A stretch of DNA of 64,000 nt from Candidatus Shapirobacteria bacterium (GCA_030613565.1 JAUWLS010000002.1:2321-66320); one strand, 5' to 3'. Shown: positions 5,222 to 24,705, counted from the first letter of the stretch. Numbers and translations are program-made. The notes: generated by a model not told the origin, from the sequence alone.

Positions 5222-5809
5222 ATGAAAGGAAAATTAGTTTTGTATCCTAATAGTATCTTACGACGCAAGTGTCGGGTTGTGAAGGATAACAAGGGAGAAA
5301 GTTTAAAAGTAATTGAGGATTTGAAGAAAGTTCTTTTAGAAACAGATATTTCTGCAGGTTTAGCGGCACCTCAATTGGGGTATGACTTAAGAATTTTTGG
5401 AGTAAAGCACCATGGGCGCGATAAGGGAGAAAATTATGGGGATCTAAGAGTTTTTATTAATCCAAAGATAATTTTGGGAAAGGGAGAAAAGGAATATTTA
5501 CTAATGGAGGCAGAGGGTGGAGAAAGAGAAGACTTTTTGGAGGGATGTTTGTCTTTTCCAGAGCTTTTTGGAACTGTAAAAAGATGGAGAGAGATAGAGG
5601 TGGAATATGGAGTATTTGGCAGCAAGGGGGATGTTTTGAAAAGAAAAGAAAAATTAACTGATTTTGAGGCAATAGTTTTTCAACATGAATTGGACCACTT
5701 GGACGGAGTTCTTTTTGTGGATCATGTAAAAAAGCAAAATGGCAAGTTTTACAAACAAGAAAAGGGGAAGATGGTTGACATGGGAGTAGATGAGATTTTG
5801 AAAGACTAA
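5222..5809 (+). CDS. def: peptide deformylase
   Basis: LYPNSILRRK at the N-terminus, GLAAPQLG, EGCLSFPE, QHELDHLDG (metal-binding HExxH). ORF track starts at 5195; start at MKGKLVLYP matches the Def N-terminus. Confidence 0.8.
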   Translation: MKGKLVLYPNSILRRKCRVVKDNKGESLKVIEDLKKVLLETDISAGLAAPQLGYDLRIFGVKHHGRDKGENYGDLRVFINPKIILGKGEKEYLLMEAEGGEREDFLEGCLSFPELFGTVKRWREIEVEYGVFGSKGDVLKRKEKLTDFEAIVFQHELDHLDGVLFVDHVKKQNGKFYKQEKGKMVDMGVDEILKD

Positions 5810-7821
5810 AGAGTTTCTAGTTTTTCTTTAGCTTTTTGATTTTGAGGGTTTATGTTTAAGGCTTCTTGATAGTGATATTTTGCGTTTTCCAAGTCTTTTT
5901 CTATTTCATAAAGCTGGGCTAAGGAGAAGTGGGCTTGATCGTAGTTTTTCTTAAGATCAATGGTTTTTAAAAAAGTTTCTTTGGCTTTCTTAACATCTCC
6001 ATTTAATTGATAGGTGAGGGCAAGGTTATAGAAGGTTTTGGCGTCGGTAGGAGCAAGCTGAGAGGTGATTTCCATAGTAGTGATAAGTTGGTCAATGTAT
6101 TGGGGACTGATGGTAGAGAGGGTGTAAAGAAGGCTGGCTCTGGTTTTTAAAAGGTTGGGGTGAGTGGGGGAAATTTTTACAGACTGGTCAGAGGCAATAA
6201 TAGCCTTTTGAATATAATAGACTTGGTTTTCAGTTTCGGAAAGAGCGAGTTGGGAGTAGATCAATGAACTTTCAGAGTAATAGTTTGGTTCGGATGGAAA
6301 AAGGTGGATGGCTTTTTCTATTTTTTCTTGAGCTTTTTGGGATTGACCCATTTGACGCAGATTCCTAGATTCTTGATAGTTTAGATCAGCTTGGTAGTAA
6401 GAAATTACGTTAAGAGAGATTCTTAGGGCAATGAAGATGGTGAGAAAAGTCAGGATGTCTTTTTTAATGTTGGACTCTAAGGAAGGGGAAAATTGATCTT
6501 TGGGTTTTTCTTTAGTGATTAGGGCGGGAAGGAGAAAAAAGAAAAGGCTAATGGTGACGACAGAGAAACCAAAAAAGTTAGTAATGAGGATGCCAGCGTA
6601 GGCGGCAAGAAGAGAAAGGTTTTCAAGACTTGGTTTTTTAATGATTTTGATAATAACAGCGAAGGGGAGTAGAAGATAAGTTAAAAGACCAAGGGTTCCA
6701 GTGGTGGCTAAAAAGTTTAGATATTCGTTGTGGGCTTTATTGTAGAGAAAATCCCATTCGGAGGTAAGGTTGTGTTCTTGGGGTCGAACCCAGTAGTAGG
6801 AGTAAGCAAAAGTTTCAGTTCCTGTTCCAAAGAGGGGATATTTTTTCCAAAGATTCAGGGCTCCTTTCCAGACAATAAGACGAATGTCTTGGGAACTGGT
6901 AATGTTTAAAGGCATTTCTCCAGGTTGAGTTTGAATTTCTGGAGGAGGGGATTTTTTGAGAAACTCTTTTAAAGAGGGGGTGTAGGGAGTGCCAATTAGA
7001 AGGAAGATGGTTAGGAAGGTGATGGGGATAGCAAGTAAGGGTAAAAAGCCTTTTTTAAGTGTTTTTTTCTGGATTGTTTTTAAGAGTTTGAAAAAGAAAA
7101 GAAGAGATAGAGAAAATAGGGAGGCAAGGAAACCAGATTTTGATTTAGTGAAAAGGAGGGCTAGGGTGTAGGAAGTAAGGAGGGTTATGTAAAGAATAAT
7201 CTTTTGGTTTTCTTTTTTTTCAAGGGAGCGAAGTAGGGGAAAAAGAGTGAAAGGAATTAAAACAGAAAGATAAGCAGCTAACCAATTAGGTTGACCAAGG
7301 GTAGAAAAAACTCGGTTTTGGACATCTTGGATCCAGACATCTTTGTCAATTCCAAAGTGTTCAAGGATGGCGTAGATGGAAATTAGAAATCCAGAGGTCA
7401 AGGAAGGGATAAGGATTATTTTTTTTCTTTTCTCTAAAGAAAAGTTGCTGGTTAGGGCCCAGTAAAGGAGGGAGTAGCAGAGGGTGGAAAGTAAGCCACC
7501 GTTTAGGCGGGAGTAGTAACCAAAGATTGAGGTGTGGCGGTCGGTGGAAATGAAAGTGGAGGCAAGTTGGGAAGTTAGAAAAAGAAGGAGGGGAAGGTCT
7601 AGAAAGGTTTTTTGAAAAATTAACCTTTGTTCTTTTATGGAACGAATTATCCAAGTGGAAACAATGAGGGTAGTGAGAAGGTAGACGAAAAGCATTTTGG
7701 GAAGTTCAAAGACTTCAAAGCTCTTGGGAGAGAGGAGAAGAGGAGTTAAAAAGAAAAGAAGTTGAAAAAGTTTTTCTAAAAGGTTTTGAGGAAGTCTAGT
7801 TTTTTTAGGGGGAGTGGTCAT
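5806..7821 (-). CDS. O-antigen ligase (Wzy_C)-like polytopic membrane protein with C-terminal TPR repeats
   Basis: Many transmembrane helices in the N-terminal 450 aa; C-terminal TPR-like helical repeats (AKTFYNLALTYQLNGDVKKAKETFLKTIDL, AHFSLAQLYEIEKDLENAKYHYQEALNINPQN). Confidence 0.5.
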   Translation of the reverse strand: MTTPPKKTRLPQNLLEKLFQLLFFLTPLLLSPKSFEVFELPKMLFVYLLTTLIVSTWIIRSIKEQRLIFQKTFLDLPLLLFLTSQLASTFISTDRHTSIFGYYSRLNGGLLSTLCYSLLYWALTSNFSLEKRKKIILIPSLTSGFLISIYAILEHFGIDKDVWIQDVQNRVFSTLGQPNWLAAYLSVLIPFTLFPLLRSLEKKENQKIILYITLLTSYTLALLFTKSKSGFLASLFSLSLLFFFKLLKTIQKKTLKKGFLPLLAIPITFLTIFLLIGTPYTPSLKEFLKKSPPPEIQTQPGEMPLNITSSQDIRLIVWKGALNLWKKYPLFGTGTETFAYSYYWVRPQEHNLTSEWDFLYNKAHNEYLNFLATTGTLGLLTYLLLPFAVIIKIIKKPSLENLSLLAAYAGILITNFFGFSVVTISLFFFLLPALITKEKPKDQFSPSLESNIKKDILTFLTIFIALRISLNVISYYQADLNYQESRNLRQMGQSQKAQEKIEKAIHLFPSEPNYYSESSLIYSQLALSETENQVYYIQKAIIASDQSVKISPTHPNLLKTRASLLYTLSTISPQYIDQLITTMEITSQLAPTDAKTFYNLALTYQLNGDVKKAKETFLKTIDLKKNYDQAHFSLAQLYEIEKDLENAKYHYQEALNINPQNQKAKEKLETL

Positions 7822-7869: not shown

Positions 7870-8970
7870 ATGAAGTTTAAGTTGAGATTGTTTGATAGAT
7901 TGTTAACTGATTTTTCCATGGATTTGGGAGTAGATTTGGGTACAGTTCAAACTAGGTTATTAATAAAAGGTAGAGGGGTAATAATAGATGAGCCAACTTA
8001 CATAGCAAGACAGAAGCAAAAAAAGTATTACGGAATGACAGCACCGAAACTGAAGAAGGCAAAAACAGTGGCTTATGGAACTAAGGCGGCGGGGATGTTG
8101 GGTAAGGAACCCAAGAGGATAGAAGTAGTAAATTTACTGAATGATGGGGTAATTTCAGACTACAAGGCAACAGAAGATTTTCTTTCTTATTATCTTAAAA
8201 GAGTTAGTCAAACCAAAACAGGAAAACCAAAACTTTTGGGCCCTCGGGTAGTGGTTAATGTTTCAGGAAAAAGTACTAGTGTGGAGTGGAGAGCAGTAAG
8301 AAGTGTTTTTCAGGGGGCGGGAGCAAGAGAGGTAATTTTAGTAGAAGAAGGTTTGCTGGCGGCGATTGGTGCAGAGCTTCCGGTGTTGAGCAATAGAGGG
8401 ATGATGGTAGTTAATATGGGAGGAGGGACAACAGAAATGGTGGTGGTTTCGTTGGGTGGAATAGTTTTGTCCAAAACCTTGAGTTTAGCTGGAATTGAGT
8501 TGACTAATTCAATCGTAGAATTTATGAGAATGAAGTATGGAATGTTGATCGGAAAAGTGTCAGCAGAGAGAGTTAAAAAAGAAGTTGGTTCGGTAGTAGA
8601 GGGAAGAAGTAAGAAAAAAGCGACAGTGGTTCGAGGGAGAGATTTAGGAACTGGTTTACCAAAAAGTATTCGACTTGATGAGGGAGAAGTAAGAGAAGCC
8701 TTGGTTTTAAAAATTCAAAAATTAGTATCAGCAATTCTAGAGATACTTGAAGAGACACCACCAGAGTTAACAGCGGATATTTTACAAAGAGGAATAGTTT
8801 TAACAGGAGGAGGAGCTCAGTTGGGCGGAATGGACAAGTTGATTGAAGAAGGGACAAAGATGCCGGTTTTTGTTGGCAAGAATGCAGAGCACTGTGTGGT
8901 CAGAGGATGTGGAAAACTTTTGGATGACAAGAAACTTTTGAATCAGATAAGGATTGTGGGAGGATTTTAA
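7870..8970 (+). CDS. mreB: rod shape-determining actin homolog MreB
   Basis: DLGVDLGTVQTRLLIKGRGVIIDEPTYIA, NMGGGTTEMVVVSLGG, LTGGGAQLGGMDKLI match MreB phosphate and adenosine motifs. Confidence 0.85.
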   Translation: MKFKLRLFDRLLTDFSMDLGVDLGTVQTRLLIKGRGVIIDEPTYIARQKQKKYYGMTAPKLKKAKTVAYGTKAAGMLGKEPKRIEVVNLLNDGVISDYKATEDFLSYYLKRVSQTKTGKPKLLGPRVVVNVSGKSTSVEWRAVRSVFQGAGAREVILVEEGLLAAIGAELPVLSNRGMMVVNMGGGTTEMVVVSLGGIVLSKTLSLAGIELTNSIVEFMRMKYGMLIGKVSAERVKKEVGSVVEGRSKKKATVVRGRDLGTGLPKSIRLDEGEVREALVLKIQKLVSAILEILEETPPELTADILQRGIVLTGGGAQLGGMDKLIEEGTKMPVFVGKNAEHCVVRGCGKLLDDKKLLNQIRIVGGF

Positions 8971-16422: not shown

Positions 16423-18618
16423 TTACTTTTTAGGTTTACCCCAGCGTTCTTGGGAGAGTCTGATTAGCTTTTCTTTTTGTTCGTTTCTGCAGTCAGGTAG
16501 AGGAAGAGTGGTTCCGTAGAAGGGGTCAGTGGTTTGATTGTCTATAGAAAGTTTAGAGAGGATTTGATAACGACCAATTTTTACTAATTCTTCTGGTGGG
16601 AAGTTTTTAAATCCGAATTCATTTGAAAGGATGCGGGCATCTTGAGAACCAACAACAAAAGAGATAAGGGTACCAACGTTTCCTAAAATAGCATCTTGGA
16701 TTTCTCGGTCAAGTTGATTCATGTATTGGTTAGCAACTGTGAGGTCAAGTTTGTATTTTCGGGCTTCAGAAACAATTTTTATAAAAGCGTTGGTAGCAAA
16801 ATTTTGAAACTCGTCGACAAAGAGGTAGAAATCTTTTCTTTCTGATTCGTGTTGGAAAACACGATTCATGGCAGCAAGTTGGATTTGGGTAATAAGCATG
16901 GCTCCTAAGAGGGCAGAGTTGTCTTCACCCAGCTTTCCAGAAGAGAGGTCAGCGATGAAGATTTTTTTGTTGTCCATAATGGATTGAATGTTGATGCGAC
17001 TTTTTTCGTGACAAACAGTGTTTCTTATGAAAGGGGAGGCGACAAATTGACCAACTTTATTGAGAATTGGAGAGATGGCTTCATTTTGGAAACGGGGGGC
17101 CATTTTGTCATATTCATTGATCCAGAAATTTTTAAGGACGCGGTCGTCGAGTTTTTCAAGTATCTTTCCTCGGTAATGGGAATTGGTGAGGATTTCTATA
17201 ATGTTACCTAAGTGGGCTCCAGGAACGCCGGTGAGGGTGAGGAGGGTATTTCTGAGGATATGTTCCATGCGGGGTCCCCAGGAATGACCATATAGTTTTT
17301 TGAAGACAGAGATGGTGGCGGAGGCAATTAGATCTTTTTGAGATTCTGTTTGAGCTTCAAGCATGTTTAAGGGGTAGACGTAGTCGGGATCGGCGGGGTT
17401 AAAGTAGCAAACGTCATTGGTACGGTGTTTGGGAATGTACTGAAGAATGATGTCACAAAGATCACCGTGGGGATCAATGACACCAACACCTTCTCCTTTT
17501 CTAATATCTTCAATGATCATGTTGGCCAAAAGCCAAGATTTACCAGTTCCAGTTTTTCCAATAATGTAGGTGTGACGGCGGCGGTCGGATCTTTTGATAC
17601 CGAAGGTAACAAGTTCGTTTTTGAATTCGGTTTTTCCAATGAAGGTGGTTTCTCTCTTTTCTTCGTCAGTCATGTTAGTAGCAACAGGAAGATTTTCAGG
17701 AGGGTAGGCAACAAGTTTTTGACCCCAGGAGATGTTGGGTAGACTAGTTAGGTGATTAGGAAAGTGCCAGAGGGCGGAAAGCTCTTCAATGTTTAGAACT
17801 TGAGAAGGAAGGCGGTTTGAAGGAAGGCGGTTTAAAACAGAGTCTTTGAGAGTTTTTTTAGAAAAAGAGCCAGGTTGAACTTTTTTTAACATATTTCCCT
17901 GGGGATTAGTGTAGATTCCAAAAGAGGCTGTTTCAGACTGAAGAAGTAAGGGAGAGTTGGTTAAAAGGTTGATTTGGGTTAAAAGGCCAGGTTGTTTAAT
18001 CTTTTGTTCAAAGACTTGCTTGTCAGGATGGGCTTGTCTAAAGTTTTTTTCTTTGTCAACCAAGATTCCGTTTCTAGCTAGAGAAGAGATGGGATTTTGC
18101 CAAGAAGGAGGAGCAGGAGACAAAATTATTTGATAGAGAAAGAAGTCGTCGTTTTTGTCACTTTTAGACAGGGGAGCAAGAATTGAGGTCAAGGGATCAG
18201 TGTCTTTAAAGTCTTGATGAGTTTTTAGGGGGTAGTAGTAGGAGCGAGTGAGGGTAAGTTGGGCAAGAATGTTTTGGGAATTATGGGGATCGAGGGTGGG
18301 GATATAGTCTTTGGTTTCTCTTAAGGCAGCGGAAGGAAACTGGGCCAGAATTTGAGATTGAATGTAGTGGATAGAAGAGGCGGGACAGGCAACAAAAAAA
18401 GAAATTTGTTGATTGTAGAGAAGGATCTCTAGAGAACAGATAGTTTTTTTCTTTCTTAAGATTTTTTCTAGAAAAGATTTTTTAGAATGAACACCAAGGT
18501 TGGCTAAAAGGGAAGCCATTTGTTCGGCACCGAACTCGTTTTCTTTAGGAAGGCGAACTTCAAAGATGGTGAATTCTTCTTTTTTAGATTTGGAAGCTGG
18601 AGTTTCTTCTGGGGACAT
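16423..18618 (-). CDS. P-loop NTPase of the FtsK/HerA/VirD4(TraG)-like superfamily
   Basis: Walker A IIGKTGTGKSWL, Walker B FYLFVDEFQNF, 731 aa, no N-terminal transmembrane helices. Confidence 0.5.
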   Translation of the reverse strand: MSPEETPASKSKKEEFTIFEVRLPKENEFGAEQMASLLANLGVHSKKSFLEKILRKKKTICSLEILLYNQQISFFVACPASSIHYIQSQILAQFPSAALRETKDYIPTLDPHNSQNILAQLTLTRSYYYPLKTHQDFKDTDPLTSILAPLSKSDKNDDFFLYQIILSPAPPSWQNPISSLARNGILVDKEKNFRQAHPDKQVFEQKIKQPGLLTQINLLTNSPLLLQSETASFGIYTNPQGNMLKKVQPGSFSKKTLKDSVLNRLPSNRLPSQVLNIEELSALWHFPNHLTSLPNISWGQKLVAYPPENLPVATNMTDEEKRETTFIGKTEFKNELVTFGIKRSDRRRHTYIIGKTGTGKSWLLANMIIEDIRKGEGVGVIDPHGDLCDIILQYIPKHRTNDVCYFNPADPDYVYPLNMLEAQTESQKDLIASATISVFKKLYGHSWGPRMEHILRNTLLTLTGVPGAHLGNIIEILTNSHYRGKILEKLDDRVLKNFWINEYDKMAPRFQNEAISPILNKVGQFVASPFIRNTVCHEKSRINIQSIMDNKKIFIADLSSGKLGEDNSALLGAMLITQIQLAAMNRVFQHESERKDFYLFVDEFQNFATNAFIKIVSEARKYKLDLTVANQYMNQLDREIQDAILGNVGTLISFVVGSQDARILSNEFGFKNFPPEELVKIGRYQILSKLSIDNQTTDPFYGTTLPLPDCRNEQKEKLIRLSQERWGKPKK

Positions 18619-19531
18619 TAGGTAAATGATAGCAGAACTTGGTTATGATGGGGTAAAATAGGGGTATGAATGGACAACAAAGAGAAGGGAGACGGTTGCA
18701 GAGCGATAGAGCGTGTTCTGAGGTTCCTATTCAAGGGTTATGGAGGCAGGATGAGATGTGGGCCAGGAAGTGGCCAAGGATAAATCAGAGAAGGCAGAGA
18801 ATGTTGGATCAGTGGAACAATGCTCCTCCGATCTTGAGAATAACAGGTACAAGGTTGGGGTAGGTTTTTTGTGGTATAAGGTTTTAATATGCCAAGAGAT
18901 GAAAACGGTGTTCTTAGACCATATCATTATTCAGAAATAGCTCATATACAAGATTCCGCATCAAGGAGGGGGACTGCACTTAATGAGTGGAGGAATTCTA
19001 GAGGGGAAAGAATGTATGGTACTACTGGTTGGTTAAGAGTTAAGGAAAAATATGCTCGAAAAACGGAGACTAGAGCTGCAAAGAGGGAGGAAGGAAGGAA
19101 GGAAAGCACAACTCAGGACAAGGAATGCCAGAAGAAGACTGTCTGAGGGTTTTGATACAGGGAGTGATCACAGGACAAGAGGTTTGGGTGGAAAACGTCG
19201 TAGAAGTTTTCAAGACTTTCTTATAATAGAGTGATTGATTTCTTATAGGACTTTTAGTATAATCCCACATGTCGGCCAAATTAGCAAAAAGCGCTAAACA
19301 AGGACGATGTATGCGTCCCAGGTAAGTAACCTATTTATAGGTATAACTGACTGGGATTTTTTTGTACCCTAATTGGTTTTTGTGACAAATTGCGTTACTA
19401 AAATTATAGGGTAGAACTTTAAAAACACAGACAAAAGACTTAAAAAGAGATTTCTAGTCCAACCAAGCTTGGTTGGGGCTGATTTTGGTTGGATTAGAAA
19501 TCGTGTAAAAAGACCGAAAAAAGGAGGATGA

Positions 19532-21148
19532 ATGCAGAAAAAGATTTTTGCATTAGTCCTCCTGGGACTAATGCTGACAACCTTCGTCCCTGTGGCTTTG
19601 GCCCGGGGACTTGACGAAGTGCTGCCCGGATATTTGTACCCACCATTGGAGGGGTACTATCGTGTGCGGCGGCCCAACCCAGCCAGCAATGATTGGGGTG
19701 TCCATGGTTTGGGCACTTCAGTTGTTTGGTTGGGAACCGACTTGACTGCCCAGTACGGGGATGCGATTTATGCGCCCTTTGCTGGGGTGGCTGTAAGTGG
19801 GGAGGAACCCACAGCCACAGGGTCAAGATGGTGGGTAGAGGTGACAGGGACCGGGCCCTGGGAAAAATGGGTGGTTCGTTATCTTCACTTGGAGGCAGAA
19901 GGTATTGTCGAAGGTGAGGTGCGGGCAACCCAAAAGATAGGACACCAGACGGATCACATTCACACAACAGTTCTTTGTTGCCAAAATGTGGAGCGTCGGG
20001 TAGGGTGCAGGAATGTACCCATCTTGTCTTTGATTTCCAGAGGGTCTTGGCCTGGTGGGTGGTATCCGACGGATCCAGAGTTTGTCGATGGCTACGTGCC
20101 GGAGACGAAAGAACTTGAGATTCCAGAGGGTGCCGGCTCTCCGAGCTGGGACCAGAACTGGTCTGACACTGGAAAACCCGGAAGTGGTCTGTCTTTAGGA
20201 AGGTCGTACCTTCCGGATTGGGGATGGACTGGCGAAGCCCTGAGGATTCTTCTCTGGGTTTTTGTTTTACTTCTGGGTTATGTGTTCGTTGCTGGTTGGT
20301 GGGGGAAAGTGACCAATCGGCGACGAATGAAGGTGTTGGTGAGGTTTTTTAGACTGCTGCCGACACTCCTGTGGTGTTTTGAGAATGCGGTACTGCTTTT
20401 TTTGGGGTACTGTGTTCTTCTCATGGGAGGAGTGGTGGTCTTGAAACCTCAGGTTTGGTCAGCGCTTGTTTTTAAGGTGTTGCGCATTGACTGGTGGGTA
20501 TATCTGGGAATCGCAGTAATTGGATTCCTGGCTTACTCGCTGTTCAAGCGTGGGCCTTACAGTAAGTTGAAGCTGATCTTTGTTACTGTTCCATGGGTAG
20601 CGGTTTTGATTGCTACTCAGGTTTTTGGGGCAGTTGACGGGATCGGTTTTGACCAGCCGTGGTGGGGGGGAATGGCTCCCAGCGCGCCTGAATTTCCAGG
20701 TGTCGAGCTGACTTGGTGGAACGGGAACGAGTTTGTTCTCAATCCGCCGGAGAAGGTTTGGCAAGATATTTGGGATGCGGGACGATGGGGAGGAACGGAC
20801 CCGGTATATCTGTTATGCCTGGGAAGTAGCGAAAGTACCAGTTTCTGGGAAAGCGCTGCTTGTTCAGGTGTCGGAGCCTGTGGGCCTTACCAATTTATTG
20901 GTGAGACTTGGCTGAGATATCAGCCATGGGCGACGGCAGACAGGTTCGCTTGGCCAGATGCGGCCTACGGGGCGGCGATAATGGCAAGAGAGCTTGCTCT
21001 CGATGGCTATTATGCTTCTTTAGAGGAGCATCGGGCTCGGTTTACCGGGGCAGACGGTGGGCTTGTCTGGAATAGACACACCAGTCAAGCTGATTACACC
21101 TTTCAGTGTGTCAGAGAAGTGGAAGAAATATTAGGAGGTTTACCATGA
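19532..21148 (+). CDS. multidomain peptidoglycan hydrolase: M23 peptidase + 4 transmembrane helices + lytic transglycosylase (SLT)
   Basis: Signal peptide; M23 motifs YGDAIYAPFAGV and KIGHQTDHIHTTV (HxH); four hydrophobic helices; C-terminal SLT motif GSSESTSFWESAACSGVGACGPYQFIGETW; strong SD AAGGAGGA; GC-rich. Confidence 0.6.
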   Translation: MQKKIFALVLLGLMLTTFVPVALARGLDEVLPGYLYPPLEGYYRVRRPNPASNDWGVHGLGTSVVWLGTDLTAQYGDAIYAPFAGVAVSGEEPTATGSRWWVEVTGTGPWEKWVVRYLHLEAEGIVEGEVRATQKIGHQTDHIHTTVLCCQNVERRVGCRNVPILSLISRGSWPGGWYPTDPEFVDGYVPETKELEIPEGAGSPSWDQNWSDTGKPGSGLSLGRSYLPDWGWTGEALRILLWVFVLLLGYVFVAGWWGKVTNRRRMKVLVRFFRLLPTLLWCFENAVLLFLGYCVLLMGGVVVLKPQVWSALVFKVLRIDWWVYLGIAVIGFLAYSLFKRGPYSKLKLIFVTVPWVAVLIATQVFGAVDGIGFDQPWWGGMAPSAPEFPGVELTWWNGNEFVLNPPEKVWQDIWDAGRWGGTDPVYLLCLGSSESTSFWESAACSGVGACGPYQFIGETWLRYQPWATADRFAWPDAAYGAAIMARELALDGYYASLEEHRARFTGADGGLVWNRHTSQADYTFQCVREVEEILGGLP

Positions 21149-22119
21149 CCTTAATGGGTTTAGTACTTCGTCTAGCAGGAATTGCTTTGACAATTTGGAT
21201 TTACAAGCAGTTTTTGTACGTTGCAAAAGCAGGGTGGAAGGGGGTCTTTGTTGCCTTCTTCTTCTCTTTCTTGGTTGCCTTTGGATTCGCTCCCTTACGG
21301 GATGCGTTTCTGAATGACTCCTACGAGACGCAGGTGGTTATCTCGGAGCACCCTGCGACGGAGGAGATCGTGGCAGAAGCTGATCAGGTGGTGGAGCAGG
21401 CCTTGGTGAAGCTGAATATCAAGGAAAAAGAGGGGATGGCTGGTATCGAGATTCAAAACTCCCCATTTTCTAGCGGAGAAGTTCACTTGAGCTATGTCGA
21501 GGAAGTAGTCTTCAAGGAAGGTAATGACCTTGAGACCTCTTTCAAATCCTGGCTTCGTGGAAAACTTGCCGCTCTCAAAGAAGAGGAAATCGATCCCTCT
21601 GCTTTCCCAGAGGCTTGTACTACTGTCTTTTTAAATATCGACCGTGGTGCCGGTATTTTTACAAAGAACACCTATGAGCTGGTACTAGAGTGCCCGCTGG
21701 TCTTTGAAGGACGGTGGTTGATGAACATCTCAAAAAAGCTGGGCGAGCTTTTTGACGGCCAGTTTGATGAGGACGAGAGGAATGCCTGGCAAGGGGAGAT
21801 GCAGGATTGGGAAGAAAAGTGTACAACGTGTTGGGAAACAGTCCGAACTCCTGTCCAGCCGGAGTTCCAAGCTCAGCCCGATCCCCAGCCGGAACCTCAG
21901 CAGGATGCCCAACCCGAACATCCGGAATCCGCCTGCCCCGAGGGGTGGGTTGTTGTTCCTGGTATCCAATACCTTGCGGTTGAGGGTGGTGGGGAGTGGC
22001 ATGAAGCTACAGGAACGGTTTGGACTGAAACTAGTCTGACGGGCGTTGAAAAAAACGGTCTTTGCGAGACGGCTTTGGCCGGCTCAGTGGGGACGGTTTT
22101 TGTAGACCCCCCTCAGTAG
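21145..22119 (+). CDS. membrane-anchored hypothetical protein with acidic/Pro-Gln-rich region
   Basis: ATGA overlap with upstream stop; two N-terminal transmembrane helices; PEFQAQPDPQPEPQQDAQPEHPE low-complexity segment. Confidence 0.45.
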   Translation: MTLMGLVLRLAGIALTIWIYKQFLYVAKAGWKGVFVAFFFSFLVAFGFAPLRDAFLNDSYETQVVISEHPATEEIVAEADQVVEQALVKLNIKEKEGMAGIEIQNSPFSSGEVHLSYVEEVVFKEGNDLETSFKSWLRGKLAALKEEEIDPSAFPEACTTVFLNIDRGAGIFTKNTYELVLECPLVFEGRWLMNISKKLGELFDGQFDEDERNAWQGEMQDWEEKCTTCWETVRTPVQPEFQAQPDPQPEPQQDAQPEHPESACPEGWVVVPGIQYLAVEGGGEWHEATGTVWTETSLTGVEKNGLCETALAGSVGTVFVDPPQ

Positions 22120-22407
22120 AGGTGGAGGGCGCGGTTGCGTTTGGGATAACAAATTACCATCGAGTTTTCTCCTAAAAGCCAAGAGGCAGGAGCGAGAAAA
22201 CCCAAGGTTGGTGGGCCCCCAGACAGACTGCGCCCCCCTTAGGGGGCGCATCGTTGGTGTTGGGAGAGTCTTTTGTCTGTGTAGTTGTCTTCTGGTAGAT
22301 CCAGAACTGATGAGACCGTTAAGGTCGAAACAACTTTATTTTTTATGGTTTTAGGTATATAATATGGCTCATATTTTAATAATAAAAGTTACTTTTTAAA
22401 AAATTTT

Positions 22408-23055
22408 ATGTCAGAATATTATCCAAATGATCTTTTAAGAGATGGTCAAATTGAAATGGGTACTTGGGAACCTCCAAAACCAAGAAAACCGTTATTGGGT
22501 GGGGAAAGAAGGACTAAAATTGCTGGTGCTTTAAGAGATCTTGGTGCTGGTACTGAAGATTTGGATGCTAGACCAAGAAGAAGAGTGATTATGGATGAGA
22601 ATGGTGATTATTTAGAGGTGGTTGGTCAGAGATCTGTTTGGAGAGATGTTCTTTCAGCGATTGGTTCTGGCGGGGAGGATGGAGATGTTGAAGATATACA
22701 GCTATTTCCTAAAATTCCATTGTCTAGCGCCAAGGGAGCATTGAGAGTTGGTAAGGTTGTGGGAAAAGATGTGTTAAAGGGAGGGGCAATAACAGGTAAG
22801 TTTTTGGGGAGGGCTACTTGGGGAGGAGCAAAAGGTATTGCTAGACTGGCGGCTTTGGTTTTGTCAGGAGGGACTTCAGAGGTTGCTTCAACTGCGTGGA
22901 AGGTTATTAGACCCAGAAAGGTGAAGATAAAGACTAACTTACTTAGTTCTCCACCAGTAAGAGAACTATCGGCTCCCAAAAAGAGACAATTGGGCATGGA
23001 TGACACTATTCTTGGCCCTGGTGGGAGATATAAGATAGTTACAAATAAAAGATAA
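22408..23055 (+). CDS. hypothetical protein
   Basis: 215-aa ORF preceded by TATATAAT-like and AT-rich promoter region; Arg/Gly-rich, unlike host K-bias. Confidence 0.4.
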   Translation: MSEYYPNDLLRDGQIEMGTWEPPKPRKPLLGGERRTKIAGALRDLGAGTEDLDARPRRRVIMDENGDYLEVVGQRSVWRDVLSAIGSGGEDGDVEDIQLFPKIPLSSAKGALRVGKVVGKDVLKGGAITGKFLGRATWGGAKGIARLAALVLSGGTSEVASTAWKVIRPRKVKIKTNLLSSPPVRELSAPKKRQLGMDDTILGPGGRYKIVTNKR

Positions 23056-23064
23056 TTTTTTAAC

Positions 23065-24681
23065 ATGAGTCCTGAAGAGAGTTTTTTAGCTACTGATTGG
23101 CTCCAAGAAGGCCAAAGATCAATGGGAATGCCAGTAAATGGTAGAAAAAAAAGATCTGTGGTCCAAGCCCTTGTTCGGGGGATTGTTAGTGCAGGAAGCA
23201 CTCTTTCGGATGAGGCAAGAATGGAAGAACGTCAGGTTCTGGTGAATGGAAGGAGAGAATTTTTGGAGGATGATCATGATGAAAGGAGAGGAAACAATGG
23301 AGAAAAAGAGGCCACGTGGCTGGAAAGGACTTGGTTCAATTTCCTTAGAATGGGAGAAGGTCTTGAAGAATATCCCCCTAGTTTTTTTGAAGGTTTGGTT
23401 ATGAGAGCAGGGACCTTTGTTTTAGAAAGGTCGCCTTTGGCTCCCAAGGTACCTAATAGGGGTTTTGTTGATGAGCTGGAAGAATCTGTTAGTCTTGCCT
23501 TAGGAAGAGAGGAAGAGGCAGAGATTCCAATGAGACAAAGACTGGTGAGACGATTTTTACTTGAAGAGGGAGGGGAGCTAACAGAGGAAGAGTGGGCAAT
23601 AAGAGAAAATTTGGATGCCTACGCAAGGCCCGAAGATAGAATAAATGTGGTGGTTAATTCCATAGTTAATAGAGCCAGAGATAATGTGCGGGCTTTGAGG
23701 GCAATTTCTGCAGGAGCTGATGATGGTTGGTTTTTTGTTGGTCCTAAGATTAACGTCAAAGAGAGAAGGGTAAATTTGTTTCAGACTGCAGTTGCAGGAG
23801 CAGAATTTAGAATTGAAGGGTTTAAGGTTCAAGATGGTAATATAGTGGCAATTAAACCAGGTAGGACCGGTGATGACGTCCCTATATCCCTTTTGGCTTT
23901 AGGAGGTGAACGACCAGAGGTAACAATGATGCCTGGTGACCCTGCTTGGGCAGATATCTTAAGAAAGGGAGTAAGGCTTATTAAAAAAGATTATAAACCA
24001 CCAGTTTCGAGAGTTTATTTTGTTCCAACAGGTCAGATTAGTGATTGGAAAGCAGGACAGGGCGGTCAGGAAGTGGTTTTTATAGTGGTTGATGATGCTA
24101 GGAACACAATAAAAGGGATAAGAAGGGTGGCGGATGACCTGGTTGATTTTGTATGGGGGAAAAAGGCAGAGATTGGTCCACCAATTAGGCTGAAAAACCT
24201 TTTACCTGTTCCAGAAGAGCAGAAGATTGCTCAAAAAAGAATTGTTTCAGCCATTGAACAAGACAAGGTTAGAGCTAAAAAAAGAATGGGAAAAAATGGT
24301 GATGTTGGGGGTGGAGGTAAGATCACTTCTTCGATTGCAAAAAAGAGAAGTGGATTTTTCAAAAAACTGTTTGATGGGGCTGGCAGCGCTGAGGATGGGA
24401 TTTTTATTCGTTTAATCAGGGAAAAAAAGTTGCAAAAGAGAAAGAAGAAAAGTGGTTTGATTGAAATAGAAAGGGGTCTCTTTGAACTTGGTACATCTTT
24501 TGAAAAGTGGAAAAACAGAGGAGAGATGGCCTGGAGAGAAGCGATGAGTAGAGGGGAAATAGATCTTAGTACAAATGAGCCCAAAGTTGGGAGTCATGCG
24601 CATGGTACCTATTCACATGCCAGAAGGAGAGCCCAAGAGGCTCAGAAAAATATTCGTAGATTAAAAAGTGAACTTAACTAA
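23065..24681 (+). CDS. hypothetical protein
   Basis: 538-aa ORF, GC-rich, no recognised motifs. Confidence 0.4.
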   Translation: MSPEESFLATDWLQEGQRSMGMPVNGRKKRSVVQALVRGIVSAGSTLSDEARMEERQVLVNGRREFLEDDHDERRGNNGEKEATWLERTWFNFLRMGEGLEEYPPSFFEGLVMRAGTFVLERSPLAPKVPNRGFVDELEESVSLALGREEEAEIPMRQRLVRRFLLEEGGELTEEEWAIRENLDAYARPEDRINVVVNSIVNRARDNVRALRAISAGADDGWFFVGPKINVKERRVNLFQTAVAGAEFRIEGFKVQDGNIVAIKPGRTGDDVPISLLALGGERPEVTMMPGDPAWADILRKGVRLIKKDYKPPVSRVYFVPTGQISDWKAGQGGQEVVFIVVDDARNTIKGIRRVADDLVDFVWGKKAEIGPPIRLKNLLPVPEEQKIAQKRIVSAIEQDKVRAKKRMGKNGDVGGGGKITSSIAKKRSGFFKKLFDGAGSAEDGIFIRLIREKKLQKRKKKSGLIEIERGLFELGTSFEKWKNRGEMAWREAMSRGEIDLSTNEPKVGSHAHGTYSHARRRAQEAQKNIRRLKSELN

Positions 24682-24696
24682 ACTAGATGTTCGTTG

Positions 24697-24705
24697 TGGT
24701 ATAAT
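24697..24705 (+). promoter_or_regulatory. extended -10 promoter element (TGgTATAAT) upstream of rpsB
   Basis: TGGTATAAT about 80 nt upstream of the rpsB ATG. Confidence 0.35.

Follow-up and report, generated by a model that had tools for sequence, protein, structure and literature searches.

Several kinds of described system resemble the locus analysed here, which lies in a 64,000-nt stretch of DNA from Candidatus Shapirobacteria bacterium (GCA_030613565.1 JAUWLS010000002.1:2321-66320), hereafter the window, and which consists of a four-gene cassette between the gene for a coupling-protein-like ATPase and rpsB. In the wall hydrolase PrgK, the LytM domain is metal-free and degenerate and restrains or regulates the soluble lytic transglycosylase (SLT) domain (PMC11323569). 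Bacterial hammerhead ribozymes cluster with prophage and integrase regions and are mostly intergenic (PMC3088659); they are thought to process polycistronic RNAs into units of different fates, although their function is still open (PMC3088659, PMC6765202). A survey of 2,918 Patescibacteria genomes recorded 5,713 coupling-protein homologues of which 148 are near virB4, and its authors raise possible exaptation (PMC12102498). Positions 18638-24693 of the window are read here as a replaceable accessory island for envelope remodelling that occupies the ATPase-rpsB slot, belongs to a rare family of four-gene cassettes and has an RNA-processing architecture of its own, a reading considered probable though far from secure. 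A preliminary description of the same DNA had singled out 18.6-24.7 kb as a G+C-rich island and a possible remnant of a conjugative or phage-like element.

The window is an ordinary chromosomal region from a member of the Patescibacteria (Microgenomates/Shapirobacteria-like) with a small genome, and it carries topA, rpsB, tsf, frr, an M50 protease gene, dnaX, cysS, hisS, dnaB, gyrB, gyrA and five tRNA genes. The block and the features within it that carry the argument are as follows, in window positions.

18638..24693, no strand assigned: variable block (probable replaceable island) between the 5' region of the ATPase gene and the rpsB promoter, where DNA similarity to the relatives L006 and L007 breaks
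19532..21148, plus strand: envelope gene 1, 538 aa, with signal peptide, LytM/M23-like domain, four membrane helices and SLT domain (catalytic Glu434); G+C at third codon positions (GC3) 0.52
21145..22119, plus strand: gene 2 (g2), with two membrane helices at the N-terminus and an acidic domain at the C-terminus; the start codon overlaps the stop of gene 1 (ATGA); GC3 0.54
22283..22335, plus strand: type III hammerhead (Rfam RF00008, 37.7 bits, E 1.5e-5 with 6.6 kb searched, gathering score 48.5)
22408..23055, plus strand: gene 3 (g3), 215 aa, small and basic, lacking a membrane helix, with DLLRDGQIEMG as N-terminal motif; GC3 0.28; no family match
23065..24681, plus strand: gene 4 (g4), 538 aa, cytoplasmic and highly charged, with DWLQEGQRSMG as N-terminal motif; GC3 0.32

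Junction alignments indicated that DNA similarity to L006 and L007 ends at 18635/18637 and restarts at 24694/24695. These are the two closest relatives found, with ATPases 85% and 84% identical to that of the window in protein and ~76% in DNA, and both have the gene order fmt-def-Wzy-MreB-PBP (penicillin-binding protein)-topA-ATPase-rpsB-tsf-frr-M50. The content of the slot in these two genomes is 0.6 kb with a pair of ribbon-helix-helix (RHH) genes or 1.35 kb with two small open reading frames (ORFs), in both cases unrelated to the island. The same synteny is found in L025 (1.1-Mb contig, ATPase 65% identical) with just three small ORFs in the slot, while in L024 (998-kb contig, ATPase 62% identical) the slot holds a 9-kb block, transcribed towards rpsB as in the window, that encodes two membrane proteins, the second of 747 aa with SLT and M23 domains, and, between them, proteins of 235 and 528 aa. 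Since the relatives carry alternative contents at this place, the slot is a variable site, with presence and absence between conserved flanks seen across five genomes. The absence of the block from L006, L007 and L025 indicates that it is dispensable and largely disposes of the alternative, raised in the preliminary description, of a core locus retained in all relatives.

The block is not a chimera, since an independent (Logan) assembly of the same organism reproduces both junctions at 100% identity in two contigs and leaves only 80 bp unassembled, at 19850-19928 inside gene 1 where G+C is ~0.58. The protein of gene 1 is consequently absent from that assembly and its neighbours are present. 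A rearrangement at this break was considered and rejected, the break being merely the 80-bp gap between two contigs. An exact direct repeat, with its right copy on the right edge of the block, was found where none had been thought evident.

18869..18879, plus strand: left 11-nt repeat TTGTGGTATAA, exact; a promoter-like extended -10 element before the small gene orf85, or a possible att-like repeat
24694..24705 (exact copy 24694-24704), plus strand: right 11-nt repeat TTGTGGTATAA, equal to the extended -10 (TGgTATAAT) of the rpsB promoter, at the point where similarity to the relatives restarts

Just two exact copies of this sequence occur in 64 kb. There is no tRNA gene at the slot in the window, in contrast to the cassette of L009, which lies beside two tRNA genes. 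No recombinase was found, and the island was confirmed to hold no integrase.

The product of gene 1 had been described as an M23 endopeptidase with four transmembrane helices and a C-terminal lytic transglycosylase motif, an architecture that is upheld by homologues, fold matches and a nearly invariant motif. The protein itself gives a sub-threshold Pfam M23 match (E 0.002, 18.7 bits versus a cut-off of 28.7) and no Pfam SLT (PF01464) match. An exhaustive search of 1.84 billion representative proteins returned 52 relatives at E <= 0.001, of which 34 contain Pfam SLT and 23 contain M23; the rarity of the family argues against the alternative that the protein is a conserved cell-division hydrolase of the candidate phyla radiation. 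Residues E434, G451, Q454, F455 and T459 are nearly invariant in the 52 sequences, with the SLT signature in the C-terminal 150 residues, and both E434-S and GACGPYQF sit in nearly invariant columns, such that the Glu-Ser pair and the G-x-x-Q-F/M-x-P-x-T motif are found together with a lysozyme-like fold. An AlphaFold model built on the homologue alignment gave a pLDDT (predicted local distance difference test) of ~90 or above for both end domains (~90 over residues 70-170). Foldseek matched the LytM fold with probability 1.0 to LytM, lysostaphin, ShyA, Csd, DipM and the PrgK LytM domain (8s0u), and the model also matches MltF, Slt, MltE, a cyanophage pre-ejectosome protein (9k2v) and phage M23 lysins. 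The zinc site HxxxD...HxH is incomplete, the first His being replaced by Trp66 (WLGTD) with D70, H119 and H142-x-H144 retained, and Trp at this position is common to the window protein and its closest subfamily members (P0125, P0002, P0004 and P0131). As in PrgK, this LytM-like domain has probably degenerated or taken on a regulatory role. A signal-like segment is followed by four hydrophobic helices, a topology that would place both domains outside the membrane. The protein is tryptophan-rich (32 of 538 residues, ~6%).

Gene 2 starts at the ATGA overlap at 21145, consistent with the coupled translation proposed for it. The three proteins following gene 1 had been called arginine-rich, a label that fits neither the acidic product of gene 2 (52 D+E versus 22 K+R) nor the group as a whole, only genes 3 and 4 encoding basic or highly charged proteins. 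Homologues of g2 were found at 2472-3707 in L016, 732-1706 in L002 and 9108-10193 in L009, and the versions in L009 and L016 end in an SH3-like wall-binding domain.

The closest homologue of gene 1 is in L009 (44% identity over nearly the full length), where the genes after that for the hydrolase encode, in turn, a membrane protein with two helices, a basic protein of small size and a large, charged one; this order recurs in L016. Homologues of g4 are encoded at 11203-12630 in L009 (37% identity), at 4777-6210 in L016 (35%) and, weakly, at 10915-12429 in L014. Identities in the three loci with the gene order of the window are 35-37% for g4 and 43-44% for the hydrolase; g4 has thus diverged about as much as the hydrolase and, therefore, the two halves of the cassette appear to be co-inherited. 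The L009 cassette lies in a different context, extending from tRNA genes and adk to PEGA/MreB with no ATPase within 7-10 kb, which indicates that the cassette sits at different chromosomal sites in different organisms. Just upstream of it are a pair of tRNA genes and a 56-nt repeat in three copies with a tRNA end (5710-5961 and 5944-6175 of L009). No convincing att-like repeats were found around that cassette; the tRNA-fragment repeats, one copy of which holds a run of N, may be artefacts of assembly and not traces of att sites. Another gene order, in which a membrane protein, a small protein and a 500-600-aa protein precede the hydrolase, is found with more distant homologues of the hydrolase in L001, L002, L003, L011, L013 and L024. 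The two orders were considered as rotations of one circular element, an idea rejected when no similarity was found between g3 and g4 and the equally sized genes of the second arrangement (BLASTP, jackhmmer, a hidden Markov model of g4, and hhalign). A word-index search with g4 returned only g4 itself, a profile search against PDB sequences was empty, and a single-sequence structure model (pLDDT 42) gave no usable fold. Proteins g3 and g4 share an N-terminal motif, approximately D-[FYWL]-L-x-x-G-Q-x-[ES]-M-G, in the window (22408-22450 and 23065-23130), L009 (10585 and 11203) and L016 (4029 and 4777), and this motif could be a recognition or targeting signal.

The hammerhead was first spotted by reading the gap between genes 2 and 3, after which copies were identified by pattern and then with a covariance model built from those copies. 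The window sequence contains stem III (AGUUG/CAACU), stem I (UUCUGG/CCAGAA), the core CUGAUGA, stem II (GACC/GGUC) and then GAAA. The core elements CUGAUGA (22307-22313) and GAAA (22327-22330) are present together with a GUC triplet (22287-22289), after which cleavage is predicted between 22289 and 22290. Minimum-energy folding recovers the hammerhead structure, in which loops cap stems I and II and stem III is left open. Counterparts follow gene 2 in L009 and L016, the hydrolase gene in L013 and, in a weaker form, the hydrolase gene plus a small membrane ORF in L014, so that the element is always 3' of the envelope gene or genes. With the Rfam model, the copy in L016 scored 34.6 bits and that in L013 33.1 bits (E 1e-5 to 2e-5 in the stretches searched). 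No hammerhead was found in L025 with the custom model and filters off, and no other ribozyme or RNA family was found in the island or in L001-L003. In L014, 22 nt of the leader, well upstream (8392-8413), show 86% complementarity to the hammerhead-like element (10834-10855) over its stem I and core, and might hold the ribozyme inactive.

The leader of the envelope genes and their 3' untranslated region (UTR) contain the following features.

18889..19146, plus strand: orf85, a small basic protein of 85 aa in the ORF list, called as a gene in the Logan assembly; no family match
19235..19263, plus strand: promoter-like site TTGATT-17-TATAAT upstream of the envelope pair, a candidate from a consensus scan (10/12)
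19425..19440, plus strand: 5' arm ACACAGACAAAAGACT, in the leader block 92 nt upstream of gene 1
19449..19502, plus strand: very stable leader hairpin, located after the 5' arm and before the ribosome-binding site (18-nt inverted repeat, 94%; -31.4 kcal/mol, z -4.9)
22230..22249, plus strand: G+C-rich 8-bp hairpin GCGCCCCC-CTTA-GGGGGCGC in the 3' UTR, with no T-run after it; GC hairpins are at the equivalent place in L013, L014 and L016
22267..22282, plus strand: 3' arm AGTCTTTTGTCTGTGT, directly abutting the ribozyme

The G+C-rich hairpin is present as previously reported, and the 900-bp lead-in, previously regarded as noncoding, includes both orf85 and the promoter-like site. The two arms form a perfect 16-nt inverted repeat that brackets the envelope genes, a length of complement reached by none of 300 shuffles and none of 502 other 250-nt windows. 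The longest perfect complement was used for this test because RNAduplex over the 250-nt flanks pairs everything and is uninformative. Equivalent arms of perfect complementarity were found in L014 (16 nt, 0/300 shuffles) and L009 (13 nt, 2/300), and L016 has an arm like that of L009 with one mismatch; when leader and 3' UTR were folded as two strands, every arm position paired with its partner in all four loci. The 5' arms share a leader block, CTTTAA-A..GCAAAC-AA, that is kept in L009, L014 and L016, and no conservation was seen upstream of it. A very stable hairpin (z -4.8 to -9.1) and a strong ribosome site, AAGGAGG, immediately precede the hydrolase start in the window, L013, L014 and L016, the hairpin being directly 3' of the 5' arm in the window, L014 and L016. 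Since the arms are in untranslated regions, one of them touches the ribozyme, and their sequences differ from locus to locus yet remain complementary, a role at the level of RNA is favoured, in which the arms would clamp the 5' leader to the 3' end made by the ribozyme. A role as terminal inverted repeats of DNA is less likely since there is neither a transposase nor a target duplication. No prior description was found of a hammerhead combined with a 13-16-nt helix tying the cleaved 3' end to the leader, the literature not having been queried for it directly.

The composition of the block follows the envelope genes rather than the block as a whole. In a 1-kb profile, G+C is 0.46, 0.53 and 0.50 across 19-22 kb versus 0.34-0.42 nearly everywhere else in the window (overall about 38-40%), and a 300-nt profile resolves a sharp rise from ~19450 to ~22300 with values of 0.48-0.59. 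The rise reported for the whole of 18.6-24.7 kb is thus confirmed for this segment and fails at 22.4-24.7 kb, where G+C is only about 0.42-0.44 (0.40-0.47 in the 300-nt profile) and GC3 (0.28-0.32) is like that of the host, flanking genes having GC3 of 0.25-0.40. Across nine loci (the window and eight others), the hydrolase and g2-like genes have GC3 of 0.49-0.66 and every neighbour has 0.21-0.40, and the excess persists in L001 and L002 where two low-GC3 genes separate the envelope pair. Since the high G+C is confined to the third positions of two genes and recurs across nine loci, it is not to be read as a simple mark of foreign origin. The ordinary lag of foreign DNA fails to explain this gap, whose persistence would point either to selection acting on the envelope message or to repeated re-import of these two genes alone. 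The GC skew of the plus strand is very strong over most of the window (+0.3 to +0.56 in 1-64000) and is positive even over minus-strand genes, for example at 16.4-18.6 kb; it is only ~+0.1 at 46-49 kb and 58-64 kb and is 0.14-0.30 inside the G+C-rich envelope genes.

The features of the block are consistent with the following scheme. In the envelope half of the cassette, the LytM-like and SLT domains of gene 1 would be held outside the membrane on a four-helix anchor with the product of gene 2 as membrane-anchored partner, and the second half would supply the charged cytoplasmic proteins g3 and g4 with their common N-terminal motif. A transcript from ~19265 would run through both envelope genes and the hammerhead would cut this RNA after C22289, so that the envelope mRNA would acquire a defined 3' end, held by the 16-bp helix against the 5' leader of the same message, and would be uncoupled from g3-g4. 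The RNA for g3-g4 would then begin with a 5'-hydroxyl or come from a promoter of its own. The G+C of the envelope genes would be a property of synonymous sites maintained together with the RNA features, not the residue of a recent import. The cassette probably serves some process that spans the envelope, by opening the wall locally.

Several points weigh against this reading of the block as an envelope-remodelling island with its own RNA processing. The promoter, read-through of the hairpin, cleavage and the clamp have all been inferred. All hammerhead scores (33-38 bits) are under the gathering score and the copy in L009 is missed by the Rfam model; none was found in L001, L002, L003, L011 or L024 with the custom model and filters off. 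Among four hammerhead copies 93.5% of cells are paired and 8 of 16 pairs are changed on both sides, as compared with 23-45% paired in slid controls, but these counts are partly circular because the initial selection of copies used a pattern in which pairing is obligatory. No significant arms were detected in L013, L024 has no GC3 excess, and the likeness of g3 and g4 to the same-sized genes in the other gene order is a positional analogy only. The 11-nt edge repeat doubles as a promoter motif, and with five genomes gain at the slot is not polarisable against loss. The stronger argument for the hammerhead is that the motif recurs at one gene boundary beside homologous genes.

Adjoining the island, on its left, are the ATPase gene and, beyond it, a putative toxin-antitoxin pair.

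16423..18618, minus strand: coupling-protein-like ATPase, 731 aa (context, not island), with DUF8128, DUF87/HerA, TrwB_AAD_bind and TraG-D_C domains (Pfam)
15216..16104, minus strand: VapC-like PIN gene (15216-15656, PIN E 1.6e-9) and weak RHH gene (within 15613-16104, RHH_3 E 0.03) (context)

The Pfam domains agree with the assignment of the 731-aa protein to the FtsK/HerA/VirD4-type ATPases. The search scored 7,808 homologues, the best 120 at >=60-65% identity, and many of them bear the name of a DNA-binding or coupling protein of type IV secretion from Microgenomates, Shapirobacteria or Patescibacteria. The order topA-ATPase-rpsB is kept in L006, L007, L024 and L025. Since the ATPase is conserved across the clade and stays in place in relatives without the island, it is not island DNA, and the idea that it forms part of a mobile element is not sustained. 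The ATPase matches a phage family of unknown function (phrog_5156, E 4e-72) and, weakly, the archaeal DNA-import ATPase CedD and defence-type HerA models; relatives of the family are annotated in viral collections.

An ATPase orthologue is within 10 kb of the cassette in five of eight independent loci, these being the loci found through the hydrolase (the window, L001, L003, L011 and L013), and the cassette is again beside the ATPase in L024, a locus outside the eight. The orientation and distance of the linked ATPase vary, and L009 and L002 have no linked ATPase. By our own estimate, which is not a computed test, this linkage is far from chance for genomes of ~1 Mb; it could reflect either function or a shared hot spot. 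The repeated linkage suggests that the envelope-spanning process served by the cassette may be ATPase-driven translocation. It is rather unlikely, though worth stating, that the cassette is the variable wall-breaching and cargo part of a minimal Patescibacteria translocation apparatus driven by the orphan ATPase, with g3 and g4, through their common N-terminal motif, as the transported or recruited proteins and expression governed by the hammerhead and clamp around a message whose synonymous sites are kept rich in G+C. A concrete conserved role for a bacterial hammerhead would follow if this were true.

The same linkage enters into the explanation nearest to the original proposal, namely that the block belongs, as a relic or in working order, to a conjugative or type IV secretion system in which the hydrolase is VirB1- or PrgK-like, the ATPase is the coupling protein, and g3 and g4 are substrates or DNA-processing proteins. 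The match to the PrgK LytM fold (8s0u) with the same LytM and SLT pairing and an altered metal site, the TrwB and TraG-D_C domains of the ATPase, and the proximity of cassette and ATPase in five of eight loci and in L024 all agree with it. The ATPase is, however, a conserved chromosomal gene that is present without the cassette, the cassette of L009 is present without the ATPase, and Pfam and NCBIfam identified no relaxase domain in any island protein. No VirB4, VirB6/8, relaxase, integrase, capsid, terminase or portal gene was found among the island proteins or, with Pfam, among the large ORFs scanned in the window, and of the Patescibacteria coupling-protein homologues only the 148 noted above are near virB4 (PMC12102498). 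We regard this explanation as unlikely. The absence of virion genes, along with the lack of an integrase, weighs against the proposal that the block is a decayed lysis or entry module of a prophage or phage satellite, with the muralytic protein acting in the tail or in ejection and the hammerhead in processing of phage mRNA. The genomic company of bacterial hammerheads (PMC3088659) and the matches of the model to the cyanophage pre-ejectosome protein and phage M23 lysins would suit a phage origin, as would distant SLT relatives that match phage lytic tail families, one of them in an IMG/VR contig. The four island proteins have no match in PHROGs, NCBIfam or the defence models of PADLOC, and PHROGs likewise has none for their closest homologues; IMG/VR holds no relative of g4 and only that one distant SLT relative of the hydrolase, close relatives being absent; and the signal peptide and four-helix topology suit a resident membrane enzyme. 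A phage origin is thus quite improbable. Of the original proposal of a conjugative or phage-like remnant, the variable block and the PrgK-like pairing of LytM and SLT stand, with the hammerhead now added in its favour, whereas the ATPase and VapBC fall outside the island and genes for mobility, a channel or a virion are lacking.

The coincidence of the 16-bp inverted repeat with the edges of the G+C-rich segment of low GC skew raises the question of whether this 2.86-kb segment is itself a transposon-like or invertible element that arrived later than g3-g4. Against such an element are the absence of a transposase or recombinase and of a target duplication at the arms, the location of the arms in untranslated regions with one touching a ribozyme, the variation of arm sequences between loci with complementarity kept, and a GC3 excess that tracks the two genes even when others separate them; we find it still less credible than a phage origin. 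Least credible, and very improbable, is an ordinary core locus for a cell-wall or division hydrolase whose composition derives from amino-acid content. The protein is indeed rich in Trp, Gly and Pro, which raises G+C at codon positions 1 and 2, and its neighbours are housekeeping genes, but the excess is at third codon positions, the family has 52 representatives in 1.84 billion proteins, and the absence of the locus from close relatives largely refutes this explanation.

The pair of genes on the far side of the ATPase had been described as a VapBC module. The genes are adjacent and the PIN domain is clear, but the RHH_3 match is below the cut-off, and the role of the pair as toxin and antitoxin is accordingly only predicted from the domains. 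Between the ATPase and topA in L006, L007, L024 and L025 the pair is absent and other tiny ORFs are found. VapBC is thus a separate small insertion, on the other side of the ATPase and not part of the island, as it is missing from all four syntenic relatives, and the ATPase-topA intergenic site (15216-16104) is therefore variable too. Elsewhere in the window, two adjacent large ORFs at 30559-33766 (683 aa, at 30559-32610, and 406 aa; G+C slightly raised at 0.43-0.45) gave nothing in Pfam at E 1e-5, and together they may form a further lineage-specific block.

The island provides a defined setting in which to study hammerhead function, with the ribozyme at a fixed cassette boundary, beside a covarying helix, where synonymous composition switches, and specific predictions follow for cleavage and for the RNA ends. 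Patescibacteria hold thousands of orphan coupling-protein-like ATPases (PMC12102498), for which a linked wall-cutting membrane protein is a lead to their role. The composition of the block is also a caution for island detection, since a G+C-rich island can be in part a gene-specific codon property and not a mark of foreign DNA.

Among known systems, gene 1 resembles PrgK of plasmid pCF10 and TraG of pIP501, VirB1-class wall hydrolases of Gram-positive conjugation systems, in being a membrane-anchored protein with predicted extracellular LytM and SLT domains. PrgK has the closest characterised architecture, and both proteins have an altered LytM metal site, with Trp in place of the first His in gene 1. 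Unlike PrgK, gene 1 has no CHAP domain, has four helices between its domains instead of one N-terminal anchor, lies near neither a VirB4 cluster nor a relaxase gene, and has sequence similarity confined to generic domains. Phage tail lysins and ejection proteins with M23 and SLT domains share the dual muralytic composition, including the fold match to the cyanophage A4 pre-ejectosome, but gene 1 has no PHROG match, is not accompanied by virion genes, and carries a Sec-type signal together with a polytopic anchor in the membrane. The window ATPase is one of the orphan VirD4-like coupling proteins (Quinonero-Coronel et al. 2025, PMC12102498), being chromosomal, widespread and away from virB4; no linked LytM/SLT cassette is reported in that survey, and the linkage seen here is a new observation. 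The hammerhead has the core, GUC triplet, three stems and open stem III of bacterial type III hammerheads (Perreault et al. 2011, PMC3088659; RF00008) and, like those, is intergenic between co-directional genes, which fits processing of polycistronic RNA. It differs in its score below gathering, its location in a Patescibacteria envelope cassette without phage genes, and its coupling to a 13-16-nt helix. The block shares with replacement-type flexible genomic islands, at which relatives carry different and frequently surface-related genes in one chromosomal slot, the fixed flanks, alternative contents (in the five genomes, two cassette types or small ORFs), envelope genes and lack of mobility genes, and is distinguished from them by its size of only 6 kb, its own RNA-processing signals and the related cassettes at other sites, as in L009. 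Overall, what is new about the cassette is the combination of a hydrolase of the PrgK kind with a type III hammerhead and a replacement island.

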